From NCBI GenBank assembly GCA_964491925.1, contig CAZBGZ010000001.1, forward strand, positions 64,701 through 128,700: a stretch of DNA of 64,000 nucleotides. Direction: 5' to 3'. The DNA comes from an uncultured Candidatus Saccharibacteria bacterium (GTDB taxonomy: Bacteria > Patescibacteriota > Saccharimonadia > Saccharimonadales > JAGQNJ01). This document shows, piece by piece, positions 7,850 to 53,848 of the stretch. Position numbers and translations under genes: made by a program. The notes beneath the pieces are model-generated. The model was not told where the DNA came from. It did not search any database and saw only the letters and a list, made by a program, of their open reading frames with translations. Every line of letters begins with the position of its first letter. The stretch's first letter is position 1.

Positions 7850-7874
7850 AAGCTTAATAATACCAGAGGTCGGT

Positions 7875-9285: not shown

Positions 9286-9288
9286 AAT

Positions 9289-9789: not shown

Positions 9790-9858
9790 CTGGATTATAT
9801 AGTTAATAATTTAACAAAACCACTTTTATTTTAGCATAATTATGATATAATATCAACC

Positions 9859-11921: not shown

Positions 11922-11942
11922 ATTTTTTTACTCCGGGATAAC

Positions 11943-12602
11943 TTATAGCAAGGGGGAGCCTTCTTTGGGTGGGGCTGAGGTTTTTGCATCAAACAAGGGT
12001 TTTGCATCAATGACCACGCGGCCGTCAGCTTCGCCTTTTAGTGAACATGTATAGAGTGTCATTTTAGCTTCAGTTGTTTGTTTTTCTATCTCTACCGCAG
12101 TCCGGGCAACAGCGTAGTTTTTCGTTACTTCGTATTCATACCATTTTTTGTTATAAAAAACCTTAATTTTATCACCCGGCTGAACCTCGTTAAGGTTATA
12201 GAAAGGCGATTTTGCCCTTGTACCCTGCGGAGTTACGCCTAAATTAAATCTATGGGCACTAAGAATAAAGTTGCCACCTTTTTCTGGATTACCACGCTCT
12301 GGATATCGCCACCATGCACCTTTTTCTAAACTAGCTGGCGTATTTTCCTCAAAATAAGGGACTTCTAGGTTTAATTTTTCTATCTGTATTCGGTTTCGAA
12401 GATCTTTTGCATCATCAGATGTGTTGTAGTCGATTGGGGAACCAGGTAATTCTTTGACTTTTGGACTAAAAACAAGAACTAGTAGATATACGCCGACCAG
12501 AAACATTATTATAGAGACAACTAGTGCCACTATTTTCGGCCATCTTCGCGTCTTGATTGGCTTCTCGTTTGAAAGGGCTTTAATAGATGGGGCTGGTGAC
12601 AT
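11943..12602 (-). CDS. sortase family transpeptidase (class E-like)
   Basis: N-terminal TM, ILSAHR (catalytic His region) and TLYTCS (TLxTC catalytic Cys). Confidence 0.8.
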   Translation of the reverse strand: MSPAPSIKALSNEKPIKTRRWPKIVALVVSIIMFLVGVYLLVLVFSPKVKELPGSPIDYNTSDDAKDLRNRIQIEKLNLEVPYFEENTPASLEKGAWWRYPERGNPEKGGNFILSAHRFNLGVTPQGTRAKSPFYNLNEVQPGDKIKVFYNKKWYEYEVTKNYAVARTAVEIEKQTTEAKMTLYTCSLKGEADGRVVIDAKPLFDAKTSAPPKEGSPLL

Positions 12603-12644
12603 AGAACTTACATTGTATCAATTAGCCAGTTATTTATTCTAGTG

Positions 12645-13736
12645 CTAGAGACCGGTATTTTTTAATTCTTCGAGTAATTGTTTTTGTTTATGACTTAGTC
12701 TGTGGGGTGTATCTACAATTATTGTAACGATGTGAGAGCCACGGGTTTTAGACCGTATATGTGGAACACCGTGCTCAGACAGTTTGAAGTCAGTCCCACT
12801 CTGTGTACCAGCAGGGACTTTCATGGTTATAGGCCCATCAACAGTATCCACTTCAATTTCTGTGCCAAGTGTTGCTCCTATCAAACCTACATGCTCTTCC
12901 GATAGTATTATGTCGTCTTCGCGGGTAAAGTGCTTGTGGGCTTTTACTCGGACATTCACGTACAAGTCACCTTTTTGCCCCCGCGCAATTGCTTCGCCAC
13001 GCTCTTTCAAACGGATAGTTGCACCGTCATCAATCCCAGCCGGAATTTTCAACTTTACTTGTTGCTTTTGTCTGGTAACACCCTTGCCTTTGCAGACGCT
13101 GCAAACTTTTTCTGGTATTTTCCCAGTGCCCTTACATTCGTTGCAAACATTTGCTTGCTGAATATTGCCAAATACTGTTCGCATCACACGTGTTACCTGT
13201 CCAGAGCCCTGGCAGGTGGGGCAGGTCTTGAGTTCATAACCAGGTTCGACTGTACCGCCCTCGCAATGTTCACATGACGCGTTAAGCTGCATGTTTAAGT
13301 CAATCTCTGTGCCAAAGACTGCTTGTTCAAATGATAGTTCAATTTGGGTTTGGACATCGTTACCGCGACGTTCGCGTTGCCCGCGTGCTTGCTGGTGACC
13401 ACCACCAAAAAAGTCGCCAAATATATCGCCTAGGCCTAGATCACCGAAGTCAAAGTTTATATTTTGTCCTTGCCCGCCATACCCGCCTCCAGCAAACGGA
13501 TTACCATCACTAGCTGCACTAGACCCAACTCCAGCATGACCAAACTGATCATACCTCTGTCGTTTGCTGGGATCTTTTAGTACTTCATACGCTTCGTTAA
13601 TTTCCTTGAACTTTGCCTCGTCACCACCTTTGTCTGGATGATGCTCGACAGCAGCCCTGCGAAAAGCTTTCTTTAGCTCATCTGCGCTAGCATTTTTGCC
13701 TACTCCCAATATCTCGTAATAATCCCTCTTTGCCAT
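12645..13736 (-). CDS. dnaJ: molecular chaperone DnaJ
   Basis: J domain (DYYEILGV...HPDK), G/F-rich region and four CxxCxGxG zinc-finger repeats. Confidence 0.95.
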
Positions 13737-27208: not shown

Positions 27209-27285
27209 GTCGGTGTAGCTCAGTTGGTTAGAGCGCAGGACTCATAAGCCTGAGGTCGTTGGTTCAATTCCAACCACCGACACCA
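27209..27285 (+). tRNA. tRNA with CAU anticodon (elongator Met or Ile2-lysidine), CCA encoded
   Basis: Acceptor GTCGGTG/CACCGAC, D arm GCTC-AGTTGGTTA-GAGC, anticodon loop CTCATAA, T arm GTTGG-TTCAATT-CCAAC, ACCA end. Confidence 0.88.
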
Positions 27286-29311: not shown

Positions 29312-29386
29312 CGCGGGATGGAGCAGCGGCAGCTCGCGTGGCTCATAACCACGAGGTCCCAGGTTCGAGTCCTGGTCCCGCAACCA
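29312..29386 (+). tRNA. initiator tRNA-fMet (CAU), CCA encoded
   Basis: CGCGGGA...TCCCGCA acceptor with the C1xA72 mismatch typical of bacterial initiators, anticodon loop CTCATAA, T arm CCAGG-TTCGAGT-CCTGG. Confidence 0.88.
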
Positions 29387-42674: not shown

Positions 42675-45203
42675 GTGCAAAGGGGTTTTATTCTGTTACA
42701 CAAAAACGTATTTCTAGATACAAGCCAGCGAAGAAAGATAACTATTGTAGCCGTTACGGCATCGATACTAATGATGGTCACAGGGGCAATACTTTATGCA
42801 CCAAAGGCAAATGCGGCGGCAGATACCTGTACATGGACAGGTTCAGGCGGTGATTCCAATATTAATACTGCTGCAAACTGGAGTGGGTGTGATAATGGTA
42901 CCGTTCCACAAAATGGTGACGACCTGGTTTTTCCAACTGGGCCCACCAATAAAACTGTGACGATTAACACAACTCTAGAATTTAACAACGTCACGTTCAG
43001 TGGTGATGATTACTCTGTAGAAACGAGCGATCCAGGCACGAATCAACTATACGTTGACAATAACCTGACTATCAGTGGCAATGATAATACATTCAACGCA
43101 TATGTCAGATTTTTTGACTCTTCTAGCGTGACCTTGGGTCATAGCGGTAGTGGAACTGTATTTAGCCATTATATAGTTATCCAGCCGACTGCGGATAATA
43201 CAGATATGGTTTTTGATATAGATAGCGATATGTCTGTCCCAATGATTGCCCAGACAGCAGTTGGAGTAGGAAGTTCAATAGACACAGTCACAAAGACGGG
43301 CGTTGGCACTCTGGATATTACTGGGGCTGGGATAACTGGTGTTACTACCAACAATGGGGTTCATATCGAAGAAGGTAGGTGGGAATGTGATTCAACTCAT
43401 TGCTTAGGCAATACTGCTAACGAAATTATTCTAGATGAAGGTGGGGGCCCAGATGGTGCAGAACTCGCGATTAATCATAGCGGAACGGTCAGTAACCCGA
43501 TAACTTCTTCTGCTACTACTGGAGAAGATGGGTCTGTTATCATTTCTGCAAACGCGACGCTGAACGGTGATATTACCGTTAACAATGACTTAAATATGTT
43601 TGTGACTGGTACTACTACCGCTAATATTGATTCGGATATAGCAATTGCAGATGGTAAAAATCTTGTAAGTTACGGGGTGGAAGGCTATACCACAAACGCT
43701 TACGATTACGATGGGGTGATCTCTGGTGATGGTGGCATGATAGTTGATGATGCTCATGTGACATTAACCGGCACTAATACTTATACTGGCGATACCGAAA
43801 TAACAGATACGGGCAGTGGCGGCCTTGTATCTGTTACTAATGAATCGGGGCTGGGAACAAATGCAGGCAAGACCATAGTAAATTCAGGGACAACGCTTAA
43901 CTTCAGTTCTGGTTCAGACCAATTTTACGACGAGCCATTGCAAATATCAGGGAGTGGAGTTGGTGGATCATACCCTGCCGCGATTGTTAACGACAACTCT
44001 TATCGTGCTCTAAATGGCAATATAATGTTAGCTGGCGATGCAACCGTACAAAATAATATCAACGAACTTGTAGTATTTGGCGGGCAGATCTCTGGTGATT
44101 TTGATCTTTCGTTGGTTGGGGGGGTTGAAAATGGAAGTTTTACAATGGGGCCATCTACGGATAATACCTACGGGGACACCATTGCTACCGGCACACAACT
44201 TCTTATTTACGGGGGTTCAGGGATAATAGCTATTCCTGGTAACCTTACGATGAACGCCGTAGATTCGCATACTAGCAGGATATGGATGCAGTACGATAAT
44301 ACTATTGCGAACAATTCTTTAATTACACTAAATAATAGTGATAGCCAAGTTGCGTATTTGTTAAATATGGGTGTCGCAGATACGGTTGGTACGATTGAGG
44401 GTGATGGGACTATTTCGATGACCGATTCAGATAGCCATCTATTGATTGGTGCCGGGGATACTGACGGCACTTTTGAGGGAGTTGTTGAGGGGTATACTAA
44501 TTCGCAGTTTGAAATTATTGACAGTGGAACATGGACTTTTTCTGGAGACAACACAGATGTCGGCAATGGCTTTAGTAGTTACTACGTTAATGGTGGTAAA
44601 TTTATTGCTAATGCAATCAATACGAGCTTGGGCTTCTCGCCATTTAGTATAAGTGGTGGTATTTTGGGTGGCACTGATGTGATCGGTCCTGTCAGTGTTT
44701 ATTCTGGTACGATTGCTCCTGGCAATAGCCCTGGCTGCTTAAACCCTGCAGGAGATGTGGCTTTTTCCGATGAACTTTCTACACTAACTGTCGAGCTCAA
44801 CGGCAACACTATTTGCAGCGAGTACGACAAACTTGCGGCAAGCGGAGTTGTTTATCTCAATGATGCAACGCTGAATGTAGACCTAGGTTTTGATCCATCC
44901 GACGGGGATGTGTTCACAATCGTTGAAGGCTCATCAATCGTCGGTACTTTTTCAGGCCTAGCCGACGGCGATACGTTTACAGCTGGTGATGGAGAATTTC
45001 GTATTAATTACAATGCAGAAAATGTAACCCTCACCTACATTGGGCCAGCCGCAGGCAGTGATTCTAGTGACTCTGATTCGAGCCTGGCAGATACTGGGAT
45101 GAATACTCAGGCACTTATAGTTATTGTACTGTTTCTAATATCTTCTGGTGGATTAGTTGGTATAAATCTACGCAAAGATTTTTTCCATTCGACACGACAA
45201 TAA
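42675..45203 (+). CDS. large beta-helical surface protein with autotransporter-associated beta-strand repeats and a C-terminal LAxTG sorting signal
   Basis: Signal peptide, repeated G-x-G-x-L-x-L-x-G-x-NTYTG-type segments (TLTGTNTYTGDTEITD). The C-terminus is SLADTG plus a hydrophobic helix plus RKD, the architecture of a sortase substrate. Confidence 0.75.
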   Translation: MQRGFILLHKNVFLDTSQRRKITIVAVTASILMMVTGAILYAPKANAAADTCTWTGSGGDSNINTAANWSGCDNGTVPQNGDDLVFPTGPTNKTVTINTTLEFNNVTFSGDDYSVETSDPGTNQLYVDNNLTISGNDNTFNAYVRFFDSSSVTLGHSGSGTVFSHYIVIQPTADNTDMVFDIDSDMSVPMIAQTAVGVGSSIDTVTKTGVGTLDITGAGITGVTTNNGVHIEEGRWECDSTHCLGNTANEIILDEGGGPDGAELAINHSGTVSNPITSSATTGEDGSVIISANATLNGDITVNNDLNMFVTGTTTANIDSDIAIADGKNLVSYGVEGYTTNAYDYDGVISGDGGMIVDDAHVTLTGTNTYTGDTEITDTGSGGLVSVTNESGLGTNAGKTIVNSGTTLNFSSGSDQFYDEPLQISGSGVGGSYPAAIVNDNSYRALNGNIMLAGDATVQNNINELVVFGGQISGDFDLSLVGGVENGSFTMGPSTDNTYGDTIATGTQLLIYGGSGIIAIPGNLTMNAVDSHTSRIWMQYDNTIANNSLITLNNSDSQVAYLLNMGVADTVGTIEGDGTISMTDSDSHLLIGAGDTDGTFEGVVEGYTNSQFEIIDSGTWTFSGDNTDVGNGFSSYYVNGGKFIANAINTSLGFSPFSISGGILGGTDVIGPVSVYSGTIAPGNSPGCLNPAGDVAFSDELSTLTVELNGNTICSEYDKLAASGVVYLNDATLNVDLGFDPSDGDVFTIVEGSSIVGTFSGLADGDTFTAGDGEFRINYNAENVTLTYIGPAAGSDSSDSDSSLADTGMNTQALIVIVLFLISSGGLVGINLRKDFFHSTRQ

Positions 45204-45217
45204 TCAAAAAAATAATC

Positions 45218-45380
45218 TGGTGGCGATAAAGCGAAGAGTTTTGAACCTTTGGATGTTATCGTTGAATGACTGATTTCTAATCCCAATCCTGATTGGAACT
45301 TACAACTGTAAAGGCTGAGAAAGTAGCTACTGAACAGATGTGGCGATACTAGAAAAGAGTAAGATAAAGTGTGTTGAAAC
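45218..45380 (+). repeat. array repeat copy C1 (degenerate: in-frame TGA and a frameshift)
   Basis: Starts TGGTGGCGATAAAGCGAAGAGTTTTGAACCTTTGG, ends GTGGCGATACTAG, plus the tail AAAAGAGTAAGATAAAGTGTGTTGAAAC. Confidence 0.95.
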
Positions 45381-45400
45381 TACTACTGTATGATGTGTGT

Positions 45401-46303
45401 ATGACAATTGAAGACCAACTTACTGAGAAATATGGCTTGCGTTATCCAAAATGCAAGAACCTGCATACTCTAGCTAATGATTCATTTGAAGTATTATGTC
45501 CTGACGGACACTTTGCTCTCAAAGTCTACAATGCAACCGCAAGAAAGCCTCAAGAAATACAGTGGGAAATAGATCTAACCCTTCACCTAACAGAGAATGG
45601 CGCGCCAGTCGCTCCAATTGTTGCTGCTAAGGACGGTAGTCACCTGAAGACGTTCAGTGTTGATGGGCAGGATCGTGTAGTAATTTTGTTCGAGTGGGCT
45701 GCAGGCGAGAAACCTAAACCAGAGCTCAGTACTTATACTCTAATTGGTGAGGCAGCTGCTCGTATACATGATGCGGCTGACTCCTTCGCGTCAGATTTGC
45801 CCCGTGAAGAATTTGACGCTTACGAACTGTTTGACGACCAACTGAAACGAATGAAAATACCACTTGAAGAAAGTGGTCAGTGGCAACGCGTCTTTGACCT
45901 AACCGAACGAATGAGGAAGATTGTTGCTAATCCTAGTCTCGACTATGGGATTATTCATAACGACCTAACGCTAGATAACATACACCTCGATAGCGGTAAG
46001 CTGGTTGTTTTTGATTTCGATAGTGCAGCAAAGTCTTGGCGAGCAGCCGAGCCGTGGGGAGTACTCAAGGCTTCTGAAGATAGGTTCAAGGCTTGGCTTG
46101 AAGGATACCGCTCAGTTCGTGAGTTTAGTAAAGAAGACGAACAAGCCGTCGCTGCTTTTGTGATCATCGAAGATATTAGGAACGTCACATGGAAACTGGG
46201 CTGTGCTCGCTCTTCACGTGGCAAGCCCCTCATAAAAACAAAGGATATACCTGCTGTTGTTGACGAGTGGCTAGAGTGGGAAGCACAAAAGGTCAGGAAC
46301 TAG
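45401..46303 (+). CDS. aminoglycoside/choline kinase-like phosphotransferase (APH family fold)
   Basis: IIHNDLTLDNIHL (HxDxxxxN catalytic loop) and VVFDFDSA (DFD metal site). Start trimmed to MTIEDQL. Confidence 0.7.
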   Translation: MTIEDQLTEKYGLRYPKCKNLHTLANDSFEVLCPDGHFALKVYNATARKPQEIQWEIDLTLHLTENGAPVAPIVAAKDGSHLKTFSVDGQDRVVILFEWAAGEKPKPELSTYTLIGEAAARIHDAADSFASDLPREEFDAYELFDDQLKRMKIPLEESGQWQRVFDLTERMRKIVANPSLDYGIIHNDLTLDNIHLDSGKLVVFDFDSAAKSWRAAEPWGVLKASEDRFKAWLEGYRSVREFSKEDEQAVAAFVIIEDIRNVTWKLGCARSSRGKPLIKTKDIPAVVDEWLEWEAQKVRN

Positions 46304-46781
46304 TTTTTCCAAATAGCTGCACCATAATTTCTTCTCGATCATCTTCAATCGCCAAGTAGATTCCTTCGTTTTGTAGACGCGTTTGCATAGACTCCTCAAT
46401 CTCTAGTGAGTCATTAAATACATCTAAAATCGTATGTTCAGGGTCATCTCGAAGAACTCTGTTTATCGACAGTTTGTTACAGCTGCAACAAAGATGAATG
46501 AACATGATTTCACCTTGTTTAGAAATGCCTTCGTGCTTGAAAGTAAGTCCAATTGGCTTCATGCCACCTAAACAAGTAGCTGTGCGATCACCTGGCTTCC
46601 CATCAATATGTTTAGACCAAAAACACATATTGCAGTGGTTCCGGTTCTTTGAACCCATAAGTTCGTTTATGACTACCCATTGCTTACAATGAGTGCACTT
46701 GAATCCACCTGCTTTGTTTTCTCTAAGTCGTTCTTGTTTTCTAAACTTTTCATAGTCAAATAGCTCACGTTTATAGTTCAC
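46293..46781 (-). CDS. zinc-ribbon protein with RNHCP-like motif
   Basis: CTHC...NRNHCNMC...CLGG...CCSC cysteine pattern. The RNHC motif recalls the RNHCP domain family. GTG start. Confidence 0.5.
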   Translation of the reverse strand: MNYKRELFDYEKFRKQERLRENKAGGFKCTHCKQWVVINELMGSKNRNHCNMCFWSKHIDGKPGDRTATCLGGMKPIGLTFKHEGISKQGEIMFIHLCCSCNKLSINRVLRDDPEHTILDVFNDSLEIEESMQTRLQNEGIYLAIEDDREEIMVQLFGKTSS

Positions 46782-46801
46782 GCAGAAAAATCCTATCCCA
46801 C

Positions 46802-46828
46802 AAAAAAAACCAGCTAGCTTAGCTGGTT
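46802..46828 (-). terminator. terminator-like hairpin inside the 5' leader of the RNHCP-like gene (possible attenuator)
   Basis: On the minus strand, AACCAGCTA-agc-TAGCTGGTT followed by T8, ending about 20 nt before the GTG start. Confidence 0.55.
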
Positions 46829-46986
46829 ACTGGATAGTCGGAAACTATTTTACTTTGTGATTACATTTACAGATTTTTGGCACCAGCCAAGCAGAACCCC
46901 ATCTGGGGCGTGACTTCTGCATATGTGGTGCTACTTCTGAAATGTAACATAAGCAATATAATACTAACTTTAGTACGGATTGTCAA

Positions 46987-47122
46987 TGGTGGCGGTAAAG
47001 CGAAGACTTTTGAACCTTTGGCTGAAGTTGTAGAGTGGCTGTTTGAGAACAAGGAAATGAGTTGCGCTAGTTGGTTAGCAGAGGCTTCATTGATCGATTC
47101 GATACAAGGGTGGCAATACTAG
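46987..47122 (+). repeat. array repeat copy C2 (frame intact, divergent 3' half)
   Basis: TGGTGGCGGTAAAGCGAAGACTTTTGAACCTTTGG... The frame reads GGGKAKTFEPLAEVVEWLFENK...GWQY*. Confidence 0.95.
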
Positions 47123-47641
47123 AGGTCCGTTCCCAAAGTTTAAGGGTGCAAGCATATAGGGCGACGGAACTTCTTTTTTTCGCTCAACTAGATCCACTTC
47201 TTCTACGTGCGCAATCGAATCCGTACCTACAGATCCCAAAACAAGCGCTTCATAAGGAAGAAGCGGCACAGTTACCACTTGATCGGCGCGTACTTTCAGC
47301 GTAGCTAATCTACCCCCTTCTCTCTGAGCATATCTTAAGGCTATGTCTCGTTCAGGTGTAGCAGAGACAAAGGGAGTGTACTCGCCCGATATAGTTGGAT
47401 CACTCGAGGCAGCATGGGTTGCTATAAGATTGATTAACATGTAATCCCTATCGCTGGCGACCTCTTTTATGACTTCATATAAGTTTTTTGGACGGTCGTG
47501 TAGAAGAGCTGCTGAAAGCATACCTCTCTCTGGGTCAACTTGATGTGGGGCAAAACCTCGATATAGCGTAACGACTTCGTCAGGAGACTGACCAAGTCTT
47601 ATTTCTGGAGATAAATTATGCCAATCAAAGTGATAAGACAT
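47087..47641 (-). CDS. hypothetical protein with ADP-ribosyltransferase-like R-S-E motif spacing
   Basis: 184 aa with TLYRG ... PFVSAT ... PYEALVLG in the order and approximate spacing of R-S-E ART toxins. Weak, motif-only. Its 3' end overlaps the tail of C2. Confidence 0.5.
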   Translation of the reverse strand: MSYHFDWHNLSPEIRLGQSPDEVVTLYRGFAPHQVDPERGMLSAALLHDRPKNLYEVIKEVASDRDYMLINLIATHAASSDPTISGEYTPFVSATPERDIALRYAQREGGRLATLKVRADQVVTVPLLPYEALVLGSVGTDSIAHVEEVDLVERKKEVPSPYMLAPLNFGNGPLVLPPLYRIDQ

Positions 47642-47678
47642 ATTTATATATTACCATAAGCTTAATAATAAGTCAATG

Positions 47679-47841
47679 TGGTGGCGATAAAGCGAAGACT
47701 TTTGAACCTTTAGAGTCTGTTGTGGAGTGGCTGATTGCGAACCCTAATCCTGCCTGGTCTTTCCAACTCAAAGAAACTGCGAAAGTTAAAATCGAACAGA
47801 GTTGGCGGTACTAGAAAAGAGTAAGATAAAGTGTGTTGAAC
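47679..47841 (+). repeat. array repeat copy C3 (frame intact)
   Basis: The frame reads GGDKAKTFEPLESVVEWLIANPNPAWSFQLKETAKVKIEQSWRY*, with the tail AAAAGAGTAAGATAAAGTGTGTTGAAC abutting the next gene's stop. Confidence 0.95.
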
Positions 47842-48387
47842 CTAGAGGACTGCGATAGCGGCTAAAAGGATACTTACATGTGACAAGAATATAAACGGTA
47901 ATTCGAAGTATAAGAAATGATCCCAATACTTGGCAGCAAACAAGCAGAGTATGCTCATAAGCCCAAAAATAAACCACTCGAGCAAGGCATATGTACCCGT
48001 CAGGGTTGTTGCAAATACGAAAGCTAGTGCCAACATCCCCATTCCCATTCCGTATGCTAGATAGTCATGTACTTTTCCAAGCCTACCTTTTCTGGCTGGG
48101 ATCATAGCAAGCAAGAGTTCGCAGCCGATGACTACCGTGTAAAACATTATCAGTAATGGTCCTGTACCGAGCCGAGGAATCACCAAAAAATACATCATCA
48201 CCGAAATCAGACTCCCGCATGTCCAAAGGATGATTCTAAACTCCCTTAGAGTCTTGCTATCTTTAGCCGCTAACTCACTGAGTGTACGGCGTTTTTCGAG
48301 CCTGTGTTCTCTGACTGCAAAAACTGTAACGCTAACTGAAGATAGGATGATTCCGAGCAAACCACAAATAAAAGCAAAGGCTGGCAT
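47842..48387 (-). CDS. hypothetical integral membrane protein
   Basis: 181 aa with 5-6 TM helices. Confidence 0.55.
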   Translation of the reverse strand: MPAFAFICGLLGIILSSVSVTVFAVREHRLEKRRTLSELAAKDSKTLREFRIILWTCGSLISVMMYFLVIPRLGTGPLLIMFYTVVIGCELLLAMIPARKGRLGKVHDYLAYGMGMGMLALAFVFATTLTGTYALLEWFIFGLMSILCLFAAKYWDHFLYFELPFIFLSHVSILLAAIAVL

Positions 48388-48422
48388 AATGATGATTATA
48401 GACTAAAAAGTTCTAACGTATT

Positions 48423-48586
48423 TGGTGGCGATAAAGCGAAGACTTTTGAACCTTTGAGTTCTGTCGTGGAATGGTTGATTGAAAACCCCTTACCTGACGG
48501 GGACTTGCAGATAAGACAGGCTGAAAAAGTCCAAGTTGAACAAGGATGGAGATACTAGAAAAAGAGTAAGGTAAAGAGCGTTGAAC
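48423..48586 (+). repeat. array repeat copy C4 (frame intact)
   Basis: The frame reads GGDKAKTFEPLSSVVEWLIENPLPDGDLQIRQAEKVQVEQGWRY*, plus the tail. Confidence 0.95.
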
Positions 48587-49075
48587 CTATTCCGCAAGGC
48601 TATGTACAGTAACCTTGTCGAATAGCTTCAGTTCGGCTTGAGTTAGTTTCTGAAAGACCTTGGCATATTCTCGGATTTGGTCTTCGCTAATAATCCCTAC
48701 TCCATGACCACCTTTTTTGTTACGTTTCTCTAGTCGTCTTATTAACTCCTCCAAGGGAATATCGAAGTAGTTTAGCTCAGTTATTGCTCCGACCTCTTTG
48801 GCTTTTCGACGAATAGTATCGCGCTCTTCCTTTGTCCATAACCCATCTTCAAATAGCAATGATTGACCCTCGGCTAGTGTTTGCCAAGCAGTCTCCCACA
48901 AGGCACGCCAGCTTTTCTCATGTAAGGCTTCATTTTGCAGGTCGAGCCCGCGATCAGCCATCCAGTCATCAGTACAAAACCGCAGTACACCTCGCTCTTT
49001 GGCAAGCTGTTTACCTAATGTTGTTTTGCCTGATCCTGGTAGTCCACAGAATAGTATTAAAGTTAGCTTATTCAT
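48587..49075 (-). CDS. P-loop kinase (AAA_33-like ATP-binding protein)
   Basis: Walker A GLPGSGKTT, 162 aa. Its start overlaps the stop of the upstream ABC-F gene (ATGA). Confidence 0.65.
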   Translation of the reverse strand: MNKLTLILFCGLPGSGKTTLGKQLAKERGVLRFCTDDWMADRGLDLQNEALHEKSWRALWETAWQTLAEGQSLLFEDGLWTKEERDTIRRKAKEVGAITELNYFDIPLEELIRRLEKRNKKGGHGVGIISEDQIREYAKVFQKLTQAELKLFDKVTVHSLAE

Positions 49076-50541
49076 GACTGCTCTAATTCTATAACTTTTG
49101 TAATACGCAGTGTATCAACAAAGTAGTTGTCGTGTGAGGCAACCAGTAATGCTCCTTCGTACTCCTGCAGCGCCACTTCTATTTGTTCACGGGTAGCAAT
49201 ATCGAGATGGTTTGTAGGTTCATCGAGAATTAAGAGTTGGTGAGCACCAAGTAGTAGTTTGGCAAAACCGAGTTTCGCCTGTTGGCCACGAGATAGTTCG
49301 CTCACCTTTTTCTTTAAGTCTTGTTTTGTCAGCCCTAAACTTCGTGTTTCCCTAAAAAGAGCAGTCGGATCAGATAGATAGTCCTGTAGATTCTCCAATG
49401 CAGTACGATTATGGTCTAAGCCGTCGACATCCTGCGAGAAATAGCCAATGCTGACGTCTGTCCCAATAGTAACCTGGCCTTTGGTGGGCTGTTCTATTCC
49501 TGCAGCAATCTTCAATAATGTGGTTTTTCCACTCCCGTTGTTACCAGCAATACGCAACCGTTCATTGCCACGGAGCTCAAAGCTAATACCATCTAACACT
49601 AATGCGGAGAAACTTTTATGGATGTCACTTAAACGAAGGAGAAGCTTTTGGCTAGACACCTCACCTGGCAAGACTACTTTGTAGCTCCGAAGCGTTTCGG
49701 GACGTTCAATATCTTCCAGTTGCTCCAGACGCTTCTCCAAAGCACGAGCTTGCTGACCAAACTTGTTTGTCACTCGATTCCTGAAGAAGTCCCGCTGATA
49801 TTTATCACCGTCCGCACGCTTAATGTGTTTATGCGTGTGTTGTCCTTGCTCACGTTGCTGATCAATAGCTTTGTTCAGCCTTTGACGCTCCTCGATATTC
49901 TTCTCATACCGTTCTAGCTCGCTACGGCGCTCTATGTCCCTCCGTTCAAGGTAGAAGTCGTAGTTACCGCCATACTGTCTCAGTTTACCGTCTTTAAGCT
50001 CGACCACTTTCGTAGCAACCTGGTTGATGAAAGCTCGATCATGACTAACCAGCAGCACCGCACCGCGATACGACTTAATGAAGTTTCTCAGCCAGTGTAG
50101 TCCGCTTGCATCCAGATTATTAGTTGGCTCATCTAAAAGCAGGGTAGTTGGTTCAGGTTTGCTAGACAATACAATAGCAAGTGCTAAACGTGTTCGTTGC
50201 CCGCCACTGAGGGACTTTGTCGACGTGTCTAGAACTACGTTTAAACCGACCCGAGAAAGGGCGTAGTTAACCTGCCACTCTTCAGCAGCCGAGCTAAAAC
50301 TTTCGTGGACTGTTCTACCCAAAGTCGCTTCCTGTGGCACATAGCCAATAACTTCCCCGTTGAGATCTAAGTGGCCACTATCTGGCTTGGTTGCGCCTAA
50401 CAGTACTTGAAGCAAGGTTGTTTTTCCAGCTCCGTTACCACCAATAAGAGCAACTACCTCACCAGTGTTTACTGACAGGCTAATGTCGTCCAAAACAGTC
50501 TTGCCTAAGAAAGACTTGTGTATATGACGAAATGTGAACAT
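49072..50541 (-). CDS. ABC-F ATPase, likely antibiotic-resistance (ARE) type ribosomal protection protein
   Basis: Two ABC cassettes (GGNGAGKTT/LSGGQRTR/LLLDEPTN and GNNGSGKTT/LSRGQQAK/LILDEPTN) with no TM domain. They are joined by a charged linker. Length is about 489 aa, and a leader peptide plus terminator lie upstream. Confidence 0.75.
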   Translation of the reverse strand: MFTFRHIHKSFLGKTVLDDISLSVNTGEVVALIGGNGAGKTTLLQVLLGATKPDSGHLDLNGEVIGYVPQEATLGRTVHESFSSAAEEWQVNYALSRVGLNVVLDTSTKSLSGGQRTRLALAIVLSSKPEPTTLLLDEPTNNLDASGLHWLRNFIKSYRGAVLLVSHDRAFINQVATKVVELKDGKLRQYGGNYDFYLERRDIERRSELERYEKNIEERQRLNKAIDQQREQGQHTHKHIKRADGDKYQRDFFRNRVTNKFGQQARALEKRLEQLEDIERPETLRSYKVVLPGEVSSQKLLLRLSDIHKSFSALVLDGISFELRGNERLRIAGNNGSGKTTLLKIAAGIEQPTKGQVTIGTDVSIGYFSQDVDGLDHNRTALENLQDYLSDPTALFRETRSLGLTKQDLKKKVSELSRGQQAKLGFAKLLLGAHQLLILDEPTNHLDIATREQIEVALQEYEGALLVASHDNYFVDTLRITKVIELEQS

Positions 50542-50554
50542 ATTTTCTCCTAAC

Positions 50555-50601
50555 AAAAAACCGAGCATGGCGGGTGGCGAAAGCGTCGCACTTATGCTCG
50601 G
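50555..50601 (-). terminator. leader terminator (attenuator) upstream of the ABC-F gene
   Basis: On the minus strand, CCGAGCAT-(25 nt)-ATGCTCGG followed by T6, ending 13 nt before the ABC-F start codon. Confidence 0.7.
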
Positions 50602-50665
50602 TTAATATCTAAGTTAAGAAATGAAATAATCAATAGCAAAGCTACAGCTCTCGGTGCGACACTTA

Positions 50666-50689
50666 TTAGCGATTGATTATATCTATCAT
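50666..50689 (-). promoter_or_regulatory. 7-codon leader peptide ORF (MIDIINR*) with Shine-Dalgarno AAGGAG
   Basis: ATGATAGATATAATCAATCGCTAA on the minus strand, with AAGGAG (50700-50705) about 10 nt upstream. It sits between the promoter and the terminator. Confidence 0.6.
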
Positions 50690-50717
50690 GTTCTATAAAC
50701 TCCTTTAAGTTTTCTGC

Positions 50718-50746
50718 ATATTACCATAACCGTATAGTTTCGTCAA
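50718..50746 (-). promoter_or_regulatory. sigma70-type promoter abutting repeat C5
   Basis: On the minus strand, TTGACG (50746-50741), a 17 nt spacer, then TAATAT (50723-50718). The -35 box starts immediately after the repeat core CCACCA. Confidence 0.65.
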
Positions 50747-50909
50747 TGGTGGCGATAAAGCGAAGAGTTTTGAACCTTTGTTTAATGTCGTAGAGTGGTT
50801 GATAACCAACCCTGATCCTGCCTGGTCAAAGCAACTCAAAGAAGCAAGCTCAGTGCAATTTGAACAGTGTTGGCGGTGCTAGAAAAGAGTAAGATAAAGG
50901 GCGTTGAAC
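50747..50909 (+). repeat. array repeat copy C5 (frame intact)
   Basis: The frame reads GGDKAKSFEPLFNVVEWLITNPDPAWSKQLKEASSVQFEQCWRC*, plus the tail. Confidence 0.95.
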
Positions 50910-51104
50910 CTATTTGATTGTAGCATTTGGTGTAGGTTGAACTTCTTGTAAACTAGACTGGTCTGGGAATAGAGGTAGTTGACGACCTTCTTCAAGACCT
51001 AGAAGCATTCTACGGGTTCTATTAAAAAGTTCATTGAGACCTTCTTGTGTTGCACCCTCCTCAAAGTGTGTTCCTGCTTCTGCTGAGTCGATAAATATGG
51101 GCAT
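50910..51104 (-). CDS. hypothetical small protein
   Basis: 64 aa, with AGGAG 6 nt upstream of the ATG. No motif recognised. Confidence 0.45.
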   Translation of the reverse strand: MPIFIDSAEAGTHFEEGATQEGLNELFNRTRRMLLGLEEGRQLPLFPDQSSLQEVQPTPNATIK

Positions 51105-51153
51105 TGTAAACTCCTTTTATACTAGGATTTTAACATATCCTCAAGACATTGTC

Positions 51154-51289
51154 TGGTGGCGATAAAGCGAAGAGTTTTGAACCTTTGGCGGGTGTTGTTG
51201 AATGGTTAATTTCTAACCCTATACTTGGCTGAAACTTGCAACTGAAAGAAGTTAAAGATGTTCAAATAAAACAGACTTGGCGCTACTAG
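51154..51289 (+). repeat. array repeat copy C6 (one in-frame TGA)
   Basis: The frame reads GGDKAKSFEPLAGVVEWLISNPILG*NLQLKEVKDVQIKQTWRY*. Confidence 0.95.
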
Positions 51290-51302
51290 ATAGGCCTAAA
51301 CC

Positions 51303-51878
51303 TTAATTGAACTCTGATGGAATATTGAACTGCTTGGTCATTTCTGGACTTGTCATTTGCCCACGGTAGAGGACTAGCCAAGTTTCATTAGCTTTCTTTA
51401 GATAGTATGCCGAGCCGCTGCCATCGGTTGTTCCGTCTTTGCTACATACTGCATTCACGTAGGCAAAGTTTTTATCAGATGAGTATAGAACTTGCTTCTG
51501 ACTTGCACCTGCTGTTCCGACTTTGAGAACTAAAGCCTGTTTAGTATCTGGATCAACAGTAGCATTACAGTACGACTTCACGGCGGCTAGTATTTGCTCG
51601 TCATTTGTCGGGGTTTTTGGGGCAGCAGCTGGCGTTTCTGAAACAGGCTGGGTAGTAGATTGTTGGAGCTTTGTGATTTCTGCCTTGCTAGCATCGAGTT
51701 GGCTTTGAAGGTCTTGGTTTTTACTATTTTGCCAATAGTATAGGCCTCCGAATGCAGCAAGTATCAAAAGAGCTATCCCGAAAGCTAGAATTATCTTCTT
51801 GCCCTTACGATTTGTCTGTGGCGGTTGACTTAAGTTGGTGTTTTGATCAGGTTGAGTTATGTTTTGTTGATTATCCAT
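51303..51878 (-). CDS. hypothetical membrane-anchored extracytoplasmic protein
   Basis: 191 aa with a Q/N-rich N-terminus, one TM helix, a short coiled coil and a C-terminal globular part. Confidence 0.55.
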   Translation of the reverse strand: MDNQQNITQPDQNTNLSQPPQTNRKGKKIILAFGIALLILAAFGGLYYWQNSKNQDLQSQLDASKAEITKLQQSTTQPVSETPAAAPKTPTNDEQILAAVKSYCNATVDPDTKQALVLKVGTAGASQKQVLYSSDKNFAYVNAVCSKDGTTDGSGSAYYLKKANETWLVLYRGQMTSPEMTKQFNIPSEFN

Positions 51879-51924
51879 ATTAGTTATACATTAGCATTTT
51901 ATGGATAAGACGAATAGTACTTTA

Positions 51925-52083
51925 TGTGGCGATAAAGCGAAGACTTTTGAACCTTTAGCTTGTGCCGTTGATTGGCTGATTGCTAACTCCCGCCCTAATT
52001 GTCTTCTATGGCTTGGGTATCAGACAACAACATCAAAAATAGCTGTCAATAATATTATGGCACCTAAGAACGAGGGTTCTTAA
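51925..52083 (+). repeat. array repeat copy C7 (core lacks one triplet; 3' half diverged)
   Basis: TGTGGCGATAAAGCGAAGACTTTTGAACCTTTAGC... The frame reads CGDKAKTFEPLACAVDWLIANS, then unrelated sequence up to a TAA. Confidence 0.9.
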
Positions 52084-52090
52084 TCCGGAC

Positions 52091-52483
52091 TTAGAAAGTG
52101 AAGCATTTTAAAAAGTGCATAGCGAATATAACCAGAAAAATCGATATCTCTACACCAATAACATAAAGAGATGAATAGACTATATTAACCCAAAAACTTT
52201 TTTTCTTAGAGTGATTTGTAAAAAAGAATCCCCCAACCAATATTGTAGAGATACCAATTATCATAGCTTGGTCTAATTTGTAGTAGTAGCTGTAGTCGTA
52301 GGTAACATAAGACCCATTCCTTAAAAACTCTAGTGGCCCCACGCTACATTTTTCAAAATAAATGAGCGTTAAAGGTATGAGTATACCAAAGGCTAATGAC
52401 AATTTTCTTATTAAGCCCATTCGACTCATTATACATAAGCCAATTGTTTTATAAATATATCCTACTATCAAAAAATCCTTCAT
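52091..52483 (-). CDS. hypothetical integral membrane protein
   Basis: ORF trimmed to MKDFLIVGYIYK because the N-terminal extension in the track reads through a tRNA 3'-end fragment. 3-4 TM helices. Confidence 0.5.
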   Translation of the reverse strand: MKDFLIVGYIYKTIGLCIMSRMGLIRKLSLAFGILIPLTLIYFEKCSVGPLEFLRNGSYVTYDYSYYYKLDQAMIIGISTILVGGFFFTNHSKKKSFWVNIVYSSLYVIGVEISIFLVIFAMHFLKCFTF

Positions 52484-52512
52484 AGCTCTAAACAAAGTAG
52501 AGCGACGAAGGA

Positions 52513-52533
52513 TGGTGGGGATGGTAGGATTTG
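52513..52533 (-). repeat. exact 21 nt copy of the tRNA(CAU) 3' end (T-loop to CCA)
   Basis: TGGTGGGGATGGTAGGATTTG is identical to 53773-53793. Confidence 0.95.
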
Positions 52534-52691
52534 CTTTATCTTCCATTAGCGACAAAATGACTAAAGTCATTGCGCATATGGGCAAGTACTTAAAACTCAA
52601 ACAGCCGTACTTGGCTGTTTTCACCTTTCGGTTCAAATCCACAATAACTCACTTCATAATAAAAACACCCAAAAAAGGAGTGATTTTATTA
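52534..52691 (-). repeat. second copy of the ~155 nt tRNA-flank element (inverted relative to 27286-27440)
   Basis: A 31 nt perfect match, 52547-52577 being the reverse complement of 27395-27425 (ATGCGCAATGACTTTAGTCATTTTGTCGCTA). The order of terminator hairpin, inverted T-arm piece and AGCC...GGCT hairpin is collinear with the first copy. Confidence 0.85.
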
Positions 52692-52827
52692 TGGTGGGGA
52701 TTAAGTGAAGACTTTTGAACCTTTCGTTTCTGTCGTTGATTGGCTGATTGCCAACCCCAATCCTGAATGGGGCTTACAGTTAGAAAATGCTTTGAAGGTC
52801 TATATTGACCAGAGTTGGCGGTACTAG
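52692..52827 (+). repeat. array repeat copy C8 (hybrid: exact tRNA acceptor core TGGTGGGGAT; in-frame TAA at codon 4)
   Basis: TGGTGGGGATTAAGTGAAGACTTTTGAACCTTTCG... The frame reads GGD*VKTFEPFVSVVDWLIANPNPEWGLQLENALKVYIDQSWRY*. Confidence 0.95.
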
Positions 52828-53432
52828 CTATTGGATTCTAGGCGATCAAGCTCTTTTTCGATAAGATTAACTGCATGCTCCCAGTCATCGGCACGCCATT
52901 CAATTGAATAGTTATGGCCTGTTTTGTTGTAGGGCTGGGGAATAAGAACCGCGGCCAACCCGTGCTTTGCAGCACTCTCGCAGTACTTTACTGCATCGTC
53001 TACCAGTACTTTTCCTCCAAGTTCCTTTGCAATTTCGCCTTTTTCTCTGTGCATGTCACTAGATGGTTGAGTCGTAAAGTAGACTTCCGATATTAAATCA
53101 CCGAACTGTTCTTCGATGACCCTCTTTGTAGACTCATGAAACATATCATAATTGCGAGATGTTAGAGCTACTATACGTGCTCTCTTTGATAAGCGTTCAA
53201 GTGCTTTCTTTACACCGCTAACCTGACGATATTGTTCTGTTGCGTGTTGGAACTTATGAAACTGGTCTTCTCCGTTGACGATAAACTTTGACTTATCATG
53301 TTCAGCATTAAAATTGAAGATGTCGGAGGCATCATAATTAGCTCCGTGTGTTTGGTTGTAGGCTTTTACTGCATCGACGGGTGTTTCAAATAGAACTCCG
53401 TCAATATCAACCACGACAACTGATTTCTTCAT
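52824..53432 (-). CDS. HAD-superfamily 5'(3')-deoxyribonucleotidase-like hydrolase
   Basis: VVVVDIDGVL (DxDxV/T motif I), ALTSR (motif II) and a VLVDD region. Start trimmed to MKKSVVVV. Confidence 0.65.
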   Translation of the reverse strand: MKKSVVVVDIDGVLFETPVDAVKAYNQTHGANYDASDIFNFNAEHDKSKFIVNGEDQFHKFQHATEQYRQVSGVKKALERLSKRARIVALTSRNYDMFHESTKRVIEEQFGDLISEVYFTTQPSSDMHREKGEIAKELGGKVLVDDAVKYCESAAKHGLAAVLIPQPYNKTGHNYSIEWRADDWEHAVNLIEKELDRLESNS

Positions 53433-53471
53433 AGACTCATCATACCAAAAATGCATCAACAGAGGTATTTA

Positions 53472-53492
53472 TGGTGGGGATGGTAGGATTTG
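53472..53492 (-). repeat. exact 21 nt copy of the tRNA(CAU) 3' end
   Basis: TGGTGGGGATGGTAGGATTTG is identical to 53773-53793 and diverges inside the T-loop. Confidence 0.95.
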
Positions 53493-53772
53493 GTCACATT
53501 CTGCTACCCCGAAACTTCGTGGTATGCAACAAGTTGCATCCAGAAGATTTCCTTGCGGACAGCCACTGGCTATTCTCCCAAAAGTTTCGCATTGCGAACT
53601 TTTCGGCATGCCTCGCCTCGGGCAATAATTTGCGCCGAGGCCCCGGCCTTGCAAAATGCCATTCTAGGCATTTCTCACCTCCGACTTGTTGGGCCCTTCG
53701 ACCTTGCTCAGGGTCATTCGACTAGAAATAGAATCGCCCATGGTTTACCATGAGCGAACGAAGTGAGTCGAA
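53493..53772 (-). other. 280 nt G+C-rich, hairpin-dense non-coding insert between the tRNA and its 3'-end copy
   Basis: Several strong hairpins (TGCAAC-aa-GTTGCA, CCTCGG-N-CCGAGG, AATGCC-attcta-GGCATT, AAAAGTTTCGC-att-GCGAACTTTT). Only short overlapping ORFs with no coding signature. Confidence 0.6.
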
Positions 53773-53848
53773 TGGTGGGGATGGTAGGATTTGAACCTAC
53801 GACCAATCAGTTATGAGCCGACTGCTCTAACCCCTGAGCTACATCCCC
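53773..53848 (-). tRNA. tRNA with CAU anticodon (elongator Met or Ile2-lysidine), CCA encoded; anchor of the cassette array
   Basis: On the minus strand: GGGGATG-TA-GCTC-AGGGGTTA-GAGC-A-GTCGG-CTCATAA-CTGAT-TGGTC-GTAGG-TTCAAAT-CCTAC-CATCCCC-A-CCA. Confidence 0.88.

Follow-up and report, generated by a model that had tools for sequence, protein, structure and literature searches.

Repeat units of a Saccharibacteria cassette array as the probable 3' end of a large serine recombinase gene

The start-less unit repeated beside a tRNA-Met gene in this Saccharibacteria genome is probably (at roughly 0.78) the 3' end of a large serine recombinase (integrase) gene, carried by a family of small integrative elements. 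These elements are roughly 3.5 kb or larger and hold 1-3 cargo genes. Each unit would comprise the crossover core, a P' half-site, 44 codons, a stop codon and approximately 31 nt of 3' flank. When the element is free and circular, one intact integrase-plus-tail ORF would span attP, and recombination with attB would split this ORF by a crossover placed within TGGTGG. A tRNA gene, tRNA-Met in this array and tRNA-Leu in a sister lineage, would provide attB with its 3' end. The integrase body would be left against the tRNA, terminating a few codons into it, and the 44-codon tail would remain at the far end of the insert, ahead of the cargo genes. As part of a working integrase, the tail would be under protein-level selection, with its first ~30 nt additionally frozen through being bound by the enzyme.

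The window, i.e. the whole 64-kb stretch of DNA analysed, contains eight copies of the unit (C1-C8), all on the plus strand and none on the other, and the cassettes all have the same orientation. A 26-nt core pattern gave 8 matches in the window, compared to 0 in 100 shuffles. The features are as follows, the first coordinate of each unit being the T of TGGTGG or, in C7, the corresponding position.

45218-45382, plus: unit C1, putative core and P' half-site, decayed 44-codon probable integrase tail (two stops, 1-nt deletion), distal box GTTGAAACTA
45371-46781: cassette 1 cargo, APH-family phosphotransferase (45371-46303, plus) and RNHCP-domain protein (46293-46781, minus)
46987-47122, plus: unit C2, tail intact but divergent (GGGKAKTFEPLAEVVEWLFENKEMSCASWLAEASLIDSIQGWQY, then stop), without distal box
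47087-47641, minus: cassette 2 cargo, 184-aa protein, no family match
47679-47844, plus: unit C3, tail intact, stop at 47812-47814, distal box present
47842-48387, minus: cassette 3 cargo, 181-aa hydrophobic protein, probably membrane
48423-48589, plus: unit C4, tail intact, stop at 48556-48558, distal box present
48587-50568, minus: cassette 4 cargo, AAA_33/zeta-like kinase (48587-49075) and ABC-F type double ABC ATPase (49072-50568)
50747-50912, plus: unit C5, tail intact, stop at 50880-50882, distal box present
50910-51104, minus: cassette 5 cargo, 64-aa ORF
51154-51289, plus: unit C6, one internal stop in the tail (51230-51232), distal box degenerate
51303-51878, minus: cassette 6 cargo, 191-aa membrane-anchored protein
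51924-52007, plus: unit C7, begins ATGTGG, recognisable for the first ~84 nt only, diverging after about codon 24
52091-52642, minus: cassette 7 cargo, hydrophobic protein
52512-52533, plus: exact copy of the tRNA-Met 3' 22-mer, ATGGTGGGGATGGTAGGATTTG
52692-52827, plus: unit C8, stop at codon 4 of the tail
52824-53459, minus: cargo beside the tRNA, NT5C/HAD 5'-nucleotidase
53471-53492, plus: second exact copy of the tRNA-Met 3' 22-mer
53773-53848, minus: tRNA-Met(CAU), 3' end TGGTGGGGATGGTAGGATTTGAACC on the plus strand

C8 has a core, TGGTGGGGAT, of the same sequence as the 3' end of tRNA-Met. Units C1, C3, C4 and C5 extend ~31 nt beyond the stop codon, ending in a distal box GTTGAACCTA (GTTGAAACTA in C1), and in C3 (47842-48387), C4 and C5 the CTA that closes this box serves the minus-strand cargo gene as stop codon. 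The 3' part of C2 overlaps the end of the cassette 2 gene, the promoter-like -35 box of which adjoins the next unit. An orthologue of the cassette 2 protein is found in locus L042 next to a different right-hand neighbour, and a homologue of the cassette 6 protein adjoins a unit in L002. The long ORF of cassette 7 overlaps, in its upstream part, one copy of the 22-mer from the tRNA 3' end. The second copy of this 22-mer and the tRNA end flank a structured insert of ~300 nt. Different genomes have their arrays at this same tRNA-Met, with DivIC and FMN_red as the flanking genes, and the cargo differs between genomes.

In the frame GGT GGC GAT, the unit encodes the peptide GGDKAKTFEPL..VVEWLI.NP.P.W..QLKE..KV..EQ.WRY-stop. 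The eight same-strand, start-less copies of the initial annotation were recovered in this frame, with C2-C5 intact, and its proposal of purifying selection at the protein level was borne out. Based on 25 distinct copies, taken from the window and from 11 further contigs of Saccharibacteria, pN/pS is 0.48 compared to 0.88±0.13 for a column-shuffle null, none of 300 shuffles reaching the observed value, and the ratio stays near 0.45 at all divergence depths. Over codons 12-44, dN/dS (NG86, JC correction) is 0.32 in the coding frame, 0.95 and 1.84 in the other plus-strand frames and 0.77, 0.48 and 1.42 in those of the minus strand, with 3 internal stops versus 23-61 in the other frames. The conserved L30 is encoded by all six Leu codons and the conserved R43 by all six Arg codons, and the stop codon is TAG in 14, TAA in 10 and TGA in 1 of the 25 copies. 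This substitution pattern in the tail is that of protein-level selection.

The absence of a start codon was likewise confirmed: an in-frame ATG, GTG or TTG before the upstream stop occurs in 8 of the 27 distinct units from all loci, with ~11 expected by chance. Homology between units starts abruptly at TGGTGG. An independent 44-aa micro-protein, translated unconventionally without a start or from occasional fortuitous start codons, would explain the purifying selection; its predicted two-helix structure is of moderate confidence only (pLDDT 70) and a few copies (P0001-P0005) have an ATG a few codons upstream. However, start codons are no commoner than chance, the sequence upstream of the unit is not conserved, the units are antisense to the cargo transcripts, and a parent ORF providing the start has now been found in locus L081. 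A separate micro-protein is thus very unlikely, and the unconventional expression considered in the initial annotation is not needed. Conserved 5' and 3' anchors flanking a more variable middle could also indicate silent cassettes by which an expressed gene elsewhere undergoes gene conversion or switches its C-terminus, as with pilS, vls, shufflons or hsdS. This is extremely improbable, as selection on the variable middle is purifying and not diversifying, the units are all in direct orientation, and the databases searched contain no expressed full-length gene with such a C-terminus.

The probable parent gene is seen in L081, where a 521-aa ORF (11930-13495) contains Resolvase (PF00239, 1.7e-22), Recombinase (PF07508, 8.8e-08) and Zn_ribbon_recom (PF13408, 8.8e-05; 23.3 bits, slightly under the curated cut-off of 25.3) domains. 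This integrase ORF overlaps a minus-strand tRNA-Met (13474-13549), ending ...ATEFQS/GGGGWI-stop, and the unit (10012-10150) is on the same strand, its tail 3.46 kb upstream. Both junctions read AATC/TGGTGG, as does the left flank of C1, with GGT GG. in identical frame at both. In related loci, the integrase enters the TGGTGG core in the frame of the tail, which lies 3-4.5 kb upstream. Since integrase and tail share core and frame, the attP site is apparently located within the integrase gene, so that the tail would be split off on integration.

The order unit, cargo, small ORF ending ...NNGGRI(E/I)L and integrase is also found in L079, L014 and L082. The unit is at 1687 in L079 and, being of window type, at 887 in L014; the integrases of these two loci extend from 6192 and 3972, respectively, up to where the contig stops, with order and strand as in L081 and the junction beyond the contig end. 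The small ORF, considered as a possible recombination directionality factor, is conserved at 50-71 aa, has no family match and is always ahead of the integrase. L079, L014 and L083 share the N-terminal motif YV(R/L)KSTED..RQ.RS..DQ. In the tRNA-Leu lineage (L083, L084-87), integrase remnants run ...VTFIENS(A/V)/GADERT-stop into tRNA-Leu. The L083 unit begins TGGTGC, as does its tRNA-Leu, and has the same frame as the integrase remnant; its match to its own tRNA indicates that the core co-varies with the target. Both L081 and L083 have the integrase at one junction and its missing end at the other, with strand and frame in agreement; frame agreement at two junction types is by itself no more than a coincidence of about 1 in 9. 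In L018, the closest case to an intact integrase-plus-tail ORF, the integrase reads on past the core and ends in a truncated tail resembling that of the units, ...SEFQL/GGRHLDGMEPIESFSY, then stop. An integrase-tRNA junction was not directly seen in the window-type lineage, where L014 ends with its contig and the L018 integrase leads into a degenerate tail.

Neither an integrase nor a fragment of one was found in the 64-kb window or in the other long window-type arrays L001, L002, L006, L042 and L077, and the 40 window ORFs scanned in Pfam included no recombinase (Phage_integrase or other). Neither the protein databases searched nor any locus contained an uninterrupted ORF of integrase plus full tail, and no free or viral contig with a unit was found. 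In profile searches covering 5.8 billion proteins and 1.84 billion representatives, the peptide occurred only in ORFs of 46-98 aa, which are fortuitously called units.

These searches also bear on the model of the initial annotation, in which the elements insert into the 3' end of a chromosomal target gene X and each unit replaces that end. Precedents for replaced gene 3' ends are e14 and phage 21 at icd, and SCCmec at rlmH. The model fits the start-less 3' end, the synonymous variation and the frozen core. However, no full-length gene X ending in the peptide exists among the proteins searched, none of those longer than 98 aa carrying it, and there is no gene in frame ahead of the array, since the ORF of 842 aa has its own stop at 45203, 14 nt before C1, as the annotation itself had reported. 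Moreover, the first unit in other genomes follows unrelated minus-strand genes, and the arrays always abut a tRNA, the 3' end of which matches the unit core. The model is therefore highly improbable and largely refuted. The earlier interpretation is partly supported: its idea that each insert carried a start-less gene 3' end stands, with the element's own serine integrase rather than a target gene X as the probable parent.

The first 11 codons are nearly invariant, as previously described, with a pS of 0.09 versus 0.58 for the remaining codons. For these frozen 33 nt, the best reading is that of a recombination site; they behave as a P' half-site, and the tRNA 3' end is proposed to be the B' half of attB. 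A TTGA(A/G)CC or TGGAACC motif begins at position 24 in 12 of the 13 units examined, the exception being the L079 unit with CTGAACC there, and at position 19 in all nine target tRNAs (tRNA-Met and tRNA-Leu). In serine integrases, attP and attB half-sites share an outer zinc-ribbon-domain motif of 7-9 bp, which in attB sits 5 bp nearer the centre, i.e. the crossover, than in attP (PMC3783163). Judged from the sequences, the 5-bp offset of the 7-8 bp motif shared by units and tRNAs corresponds to this typical shift. The likeness of core and tRNA, earlier thought to be possibly accidental, would instead reflect an attP/attB half-site relation.

In L081, attL and attR have AATCTGGTGG in common, on which the exact crossover dinucleotide could not be placed, and no clear dyad symmetry was observed in the reconstructed attP or attB. 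Left of the core, the T at position -2 is the sole conserved base, so that the integrase-less cassettes are without a recognisable P half-site. The regular promoter/core joints of the cassettes are also not explained by simple recombination of attL x attR or of tandem attP x attB.

The arrays resemble integron arrays and CALINs in some respects: same-orientation cassettes of 1-2 genes, each with a terminal repeat (~60-170 nt), the ORF stop codon within the repeat, and resistance-type cargo including APH, ABC-F and a copper operon. An integron-like system, with the unit as an attC-type site, an integrase acting in trans from elsewhere and the coding signal as a relic of origin, would also fit the regular cassette anatomy (on the minus strand, a promoter followed by an ORF and then the unit), the arrays without integrase, and the cassette common to the window and L042 with different neighbours. 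In contrast to integrons, IntI tyrosine recombinase, attI and attC hairpin are absent here, the array is anchored at a tRNA and the repeat appears to be the end of a protein-coding gene. No inverted-repeat hairpin was found in the consensus of 16 units, which folds at -3.5 kcal/mol with negligible covariation; the two terminal boxes of the unit are direct repeats, the left half-site is not conserved, and a pure relic would not hold its pN/pS so steadily at all depths. An integron-like origin is therefore unlikely, but trans-mobilised satellites are compatible with the integrase-tail explanation as a later stage.

Among known systems, the phage Mx8, 49 kb in length, has several of the proposed features. 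In Mx8 IntP/IntX of Myxococcus, attP is inside the int coding sequence near the 3' end, the prophage int gains a new 3' end with the old one at the other junction, and integration takes place at the 3' end of a tRNA-Asp gene (PMC6070905; PMC4383910). The likeness thus covers the position of attP, the split on integration and the tRNA 3'-end target; the differences are a tyrosine recombinase versus a large serine recombinase, and a phage versus roughly 3.5-kb or larger elements with integrase-less cassettes stacked in arrays. SSV-type integrases are split near the 5' end, with Int(N) as the small fragment, whereas here it would be the C-terminal 44 aa. These 'suicidal' integrases have the recombination site within the ORF, with integration giving two element-flanking fragments and orphan fragments accumulating beside tRNA genes (PMC7253208; PMC4383910). 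To that extent they resemble the present family, although they are archaeal tyrosine recombinases of viruses and plasmids. The domain set of Resolvase, Recombinase and Zn ribbon is the same as in LI/A118, Bxb1 and phiC31. To our knowledge, attP is located outside the gene in the large serine integrases described so far, and their targets are mostly protein-coding genes, while here attP is apparently inside the gene and the target is a tRNA. Targeting of t(m)RNA genes by S-Ints was called previously unreported in 2020, with 14 of 297 computational cases (PMC7192596).

In the window, the eight copies would be tails from such insertions, or from integrase-less derivatives, stacked beside tRNA-Met, with all integrase bodies lost and half of the tails decaying. 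Lesions, among them those already annotated in C1, C6 and C8, affect 4 of the 8 window units and 9 of the 33 units found in all loci, which fits a lack of selection after the tail has been detached. In the integration-dependent immunity of mycobacteriophages, described by Broussard and colleagues in 2013, attP reportedly falls within a phage gene, towards its 3' end, and integration at a tRNA is said to truncate the protein and alter its behaviour. There, the split gene is a repressor and the integrase a tyrosine recombinase; if the tail regulates the integrase, this immunity system may be a functional analogue of the Saccharibacteria elements.

Eight direct copies of a repeat unit, each consisting of a TGGTGG core, a start-less tail of 44 codons and a stop codon, lie in the window between the stop codon (45203) of an ORF for an 842-aa surface protein and a tRNA-Met(CAU) gene. 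The window has three such tRNA genes (27209-27285, 29312-29386 and 53773-53848, the last on the minus strand), and the array is found at the third only.

Position of the T of TGGTGG in the repeat units of the window
45218, plus strand, unit C1, with stops or a frameshift
46987, plus strand, unit C2, intact
47679, plus strand, unit C3, intact
48423, plus strand, unit C4, intact
50747, plus strand, unit C5, intact
51154, plus strand, unit C6, with stops or a frameshift
51924, plus strand, unit C7, truncated
52692, plus strand, unit C8, with stops or a frameshift

The spaces between the units hold one or two genes each, mostly on the minus strand, and a unit with its adjoining cargo is referred to here as a cassette. 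Cargo products with an assigned family are an APH-family phosphotransferase beside an RNHCP protein, an AAA_33/zeta-like kinase beside an ABC-F ATPase, and an NT5C nucleotidase. The remainder comprises two proteins without a family match, a 64-aa ORF and a further two proteins that are hydrophobic or membrane-anchored, of which one lacks a family match and the other has a marginal match only. Units C1, C3, C4 and C5 measure about 166 nt, made up of 44 codons, the stop and a 31-nt 3' stretch that terminates in GTTGAACCTA (C3, C4 and C5) or GTTGAAACTA (C1); the terminal CTA of C3, C4 and C5 is the stop codon of the next minus-strand gene. Sigma-70-like promoters on the minus strand start directly after the CCACCA of three or four units. 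The strong ones (46958-46986, 47648-47676 and 50718-50746; TTGACA-17-TATTAT and similar) have a -35 hexamer that begins at, or at most 1 base from, the CCACCA end of the next unit, so each cargo gene seems to bring its own promoter, right at the joint. At another locus (L088, 363-3500), a copper-resistance operon on the plus strand (CsoR-type repressor, DUF305 and P-type ATPase) comes after a lone unit and before tRNA-Met, so whole operons can serve as cargo and both strands can carry it.

With a nucleotide profile, 33 unit copies were identified, distributed over the window and a further 11 Saccharibacteria contigs. Read in the frame GGT GGC GAT, the copies of the window encode GGDKAKTFEPL..VVEWLI.NP.P.W..QLKE..KV..EQ.WRY-stop. 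The initial annotation had interpreted this peptide as a start-less gene 3' end under protein-level selection, and the observation is confirmed. For codons 12-44 of 20 distinct full-length copies, this frame has a dN/dS of 0.32 and 3 internal stops. The two other plus-strand frames have a dN/dS of 0.95 and 1.84, those of the minus strand 0.77, 0.48 and 1.42, and internal stops outside this frame number 23-61. For 25 distinct copies, pN/pS is 0.48, while shuffled alignment columns give 0.88±0.13 and none of 300 shuffles was as low. Leu30 is conserved yet spelled by six codons, as is Arg43, and the stop can be TAG, TAA or TGA. No Rfam match was obtained for an RNA or ssDNA structure, and folding 16 units to a consensus yields a negligible -3.5 kcal/mol; the conservation is therefore not explained by structure. 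The unit is thus the end of a protein-coding gene; AlphaFold models the tail as two helices with modest confidence (pLDDT 70).

This gene end has no beginning of its own. Homology among the units starts abruptly at TGGTGG, the upstream open frame is short in all 33 copies (50 codons at most), and an in-frame start codon occurs upstream of 8 of 27 units, where about 11 are expected by chance. An internal start at codon 11 (TTG) was rejected, as this codon is TTA, TTC, CTC or ATG in several units. Start-less translation of a tmRNA-like or leaderless type was rejected as well: the CCA-like end is on the opposite strand, the GTG of TGGTGG is out of frame and no conserved element is present upstream. 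Also as initially annotated, no parent gene precedes C1. Read-through from the 842-aa ORF, which ends in an LADTG-like motif, a hydrophobic stretch and a basic tail, was considered since C1 is in frame with it (45201-45221), but two stops lie between them and C1 itself is decayed; the shared frame is judged a coincidence. A template repeat of a diversity-generating retroelement (DGR) does not fit either, with differences between copies that are not adenine-specific and no full-length gene with a matching variable repeat found. The likeness to a dif/Xer site, judged by eye, is confined to one arm, and this reading was set aside.

The first 11 codons had been described as frozen at the nucleotide level, which is borne out by a pS of 0.09 versus 0.58 for the remainder. 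Between lineages these 33 nt differ and the amino-acid pattern is kept. Even the most distant members, at about 35% identity, retain GG.(E/K)A..(F/L)EP....(I/V)..W(L/F)..NP...W......A.......Y.Y, indicating an old family.

Among 5.8 billion proteins and 1.84 billion cluster representatives, peptide and profile searches for a full-length parent protein found nothing beyond ORFs of 46-98 aa, which are units that by chance have a start codon. Searches of the peptide against Pfam, PHROGs and PDB, and tblastn against phage and plasmid collections, gave nothing relevant. One database match, P0012 (85 aa), combines an HTH-like N-terminus with a unit and was weighed as a possible short but complete parent. 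It was discarded, since its N-terminal portion corresponds to the first 40 aa of a 140-aa HTH_23 gene. At tRNA-Leu loci, this HTH_23 gene is located beside the tRNA-Leu gene, upstream of the integrase, and is variably truncated (at tRNA-Leu(CAG): L083, 10001-10423; L084-L087; L078, 191-313). Database copies are often cut at differing codons and fused to units, tRNA sequence or integrase remnants. The same trail led to a 56-aa ORF that has the N-terminal catalytic motif of serine recombinases and runs into the 3' end of tRNA-Leu, and tblastn with this motif gave matches in three unit-bearing loci. Two further candidate loci (L024 and L046) were removed, their pattern match being inside an unrelated gene beside an unrelated serine recombinase. 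The probable parent was found at loci with units, as a serine integrase ORF.

At locus L081, a 521-aa ORF (11930-13495) with Resolvase, Recombinase and Zn_ribbon_recom domains overlaps tRNA-Met (13474-13549, minus strand) with its 3' end and reads ...ATEFQS/GGGGWI-stop. The strand of this ORF also carries a unit, 3.46 kb upstream. AATC/TGGTGG is found at both junctions, with GGT GG. in one shared reading frame, and joining the integrase end to the tail gives ...ATEFQS-GGAEATSFEPVIAYLAEWFIDNPITNW...AYRY-stop. The order unit, cargo, small ORF ending in ...NNGGRI(E/I)L and integrase recurs in L079, L082 and L014, the unit of L014 being of the window type. At tRNA-Leu loci, integrase remnants run into the tRNA as ...VTFIENS(A/V)/GADERT-stop, and the L083 unit starts with TGGTGC, like its tRNA-Leu, and is again in frame with the integrase remnant. 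In L018, the integrase ORF extends past the core and ends in a truncated tail resembling the unit (...SEFQL/GGRHLDGMEPIESFSY-stop), a short variant that also bounds the array of contig L001. A serine integrase ORF reaching into the tRNA, with the same core and reading frame as the tail, is directly observed. In L081, a DivIC gene is flanked by two tRNA-Met genes. The small ORF (50-71 aa, without a family match), always just upstream of the integrase, is a candidate directionality factor or regulator.

Small ORFs ending in ...NNGGRI(E/I)L
11688-11903, L081
3778-3948, L014
8958-9110, L083
6048-6164, L079

For the half-site motifs, numbering runs from the T of TGGTG. In 12 of 13 units examined, across all lineages, TTGA(A/G)CC begins at position 24 (TGGAACC for the short variant), where the L079 unit has CTGAACC. 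In all nine target tRNAs the motif begins at position 19 and is the T-loop. According to Rutherford et al. (PMC3783163), attP and attB half-sites of serine integrases have in common a 7-9 bp motif for the zinc-ribbon domain, which is 5 bp nearer the crossover in attB than in attP. The same shift is present between units and tRNAs. Therefore, the frozen 33 nt behave like the P' half of attP, and the B' half of attB corresponds to the tRNA 3' end. This explains the likeness of the unit to a tRNA end, the additional 5 nt of the unit, and the double constraint, on nucleotides and on protein, of the first codons. Dyad symmetry was not detected in the reconstructed attP and attB. A conserved non-coding distal box, GATAAAG-N-TTGAACCTA (45350-45382, 47812-47844, 48556-48589 and 50880-50912), repeats the proximal box of the unit with the tRNA- or attB-type spacing GAT-N8-TTGAACC instead of GAT-N13. 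The box may bind the integrase as a second site or be the vestige of a tRNA.

Taken together, it is likely (probability of roughly 0.78) that the tail is supplied by the element's own serine integrase gene, with the tRNA as target. The initial proposal that the inserts brought a gene 3' end with a recombination core is supported in this respect, but not its assignment to a chromosomal target gene. In the circular element, the integrase ORF would span attP, with a predicted fused junction for L081 of ...GAATTTCAATC-TGGTGGAGCAGAAGCC. Integration at the CCA-proximal tRNA end would then detach the last 44 codons and leave the tRNA intact, and the tail would be under selection only while attached to the integrase. 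Lesions in 9 of the 33 units, and in four of the eight in the window, fit decay after detachment; pN/pS is no higher among the closest unit pairs and is therefore no gauge of how recent the detachment was. By analogy with Mx8, one may speculate that the truncation alters integrase activity or direction. No intact integrase-plus-tail ORF was seen in the protein databases searched or at any of the loci, nor a free form of the element among viral contigs scanned by DNA pattern and with the L081 integrase protein.

The history of the array itself is less straightforward. No integrase was found in the window or in five other long window-type arrays. Left of the cores, the only conserved base is a T at -2, so the cassettes have no recognisable P half-site and simple tandem integration does not account for the promoter-core joints. 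Integrase-less cassettes may have arisen as satellites mobilised in trans, by deletion of the integrase module or by homologous recombination between units. Saccharibacteria are competent bacteria, and a ComEC gene is present in the window. The cassette anatomy resembles that of an integron, but the defining IntI and attC hairpin are absent from the window array. A serine-recombinase counterpart, in which a self-splitting integrase acts at the tRNA-Met or tRNA-Leu end, tail loss switches directionality or activity, and integrase-less cassettes of a promoter and gene, with nothing but the P' half-site and tail, are mobilised in trans and stacked, is a tentative and rather improbable reading. 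If true, the stacked cassettes would be an exchangeable store of resistance and membrane genes for these reduced-genome epibionts.

Other probable insertions occur around this tRNA. A piece of about 300 nt directly 3' of tRNA-Met (53471-53793) lies between exact 22-nt copies of the tRNA 3' end and has an unusually good RNA fold on the minus strand (-116 kcal/mol, z = -4.56), with no match in Rfam. Possible identities are a small non-autonomous element and an undescribed RNA gene. A comparable GC-rich piece just before the L079 unit (1514-1686) begins with a tRNA-end copy. A third exact 22-mer (52512-52533) occurs upstream of C8, within the long form of an ORF (52091..52642, minus strand), and the copies at 52512 and 53471 enclose a segment with C8 and the NT5C gene. 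These repeats are far longer than the TGGTGG identity of the units, suggesting a second, different insertion process at this tRNA. In L001, a relative, the array (7850-10837) is located 5' of the same tRNA-Met and is oriented the other way. It is bounded by GGGGATG, an acceptor-stem sequence found at both tRNA gene ends, suggesting that the self-complementary acceptor stem can be used as a site in both orientations.

Integrase genes running across attP are known in Mx8 and in the SSV family, all tyrosine recombinases (PMC4383910; PMC7253208), and a changed 3' end alters integrase specificity in Mx8 (PMC6070905). The present elements would share the attP-spanning arrangement, but with a serine recombinase. 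In 2014, tRNA genes were stated not to be among known serine integrase targets (PMC4383910), and by 2020 such targeting comprised only 14 of 297 cases, computational and unverified (PMC7192596). In the literature searched, no report was found of an attP-spanning serine recombinase gene split by integration, nor anything relevant on integrons, cassettes or serine recombinases in Saccharibacteria. If true, the split-by-integration integrase gene would extend from tyrosine to serine recombinases, and the half-site geometry would argue mechanistically, from the sites themselves, that a serine integrase uses the 3' end of a tRNA. The short defined site (tRNA end and 33-nt half-site) and the compact integrase could also interest genome engineers of Saccharibacteria.

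Saccharibacteria are ultra-small, host-dependent bacteria, and to our knowledge their mobile elements are poorly known. If the proposed reading is true, the site would be a conserved gene-exchange hotspot in this group. An aminoglycoside-type phosphotransferase and an ABC-F ATPase are among the cargo, as is a copper-resistance operon in a relative.
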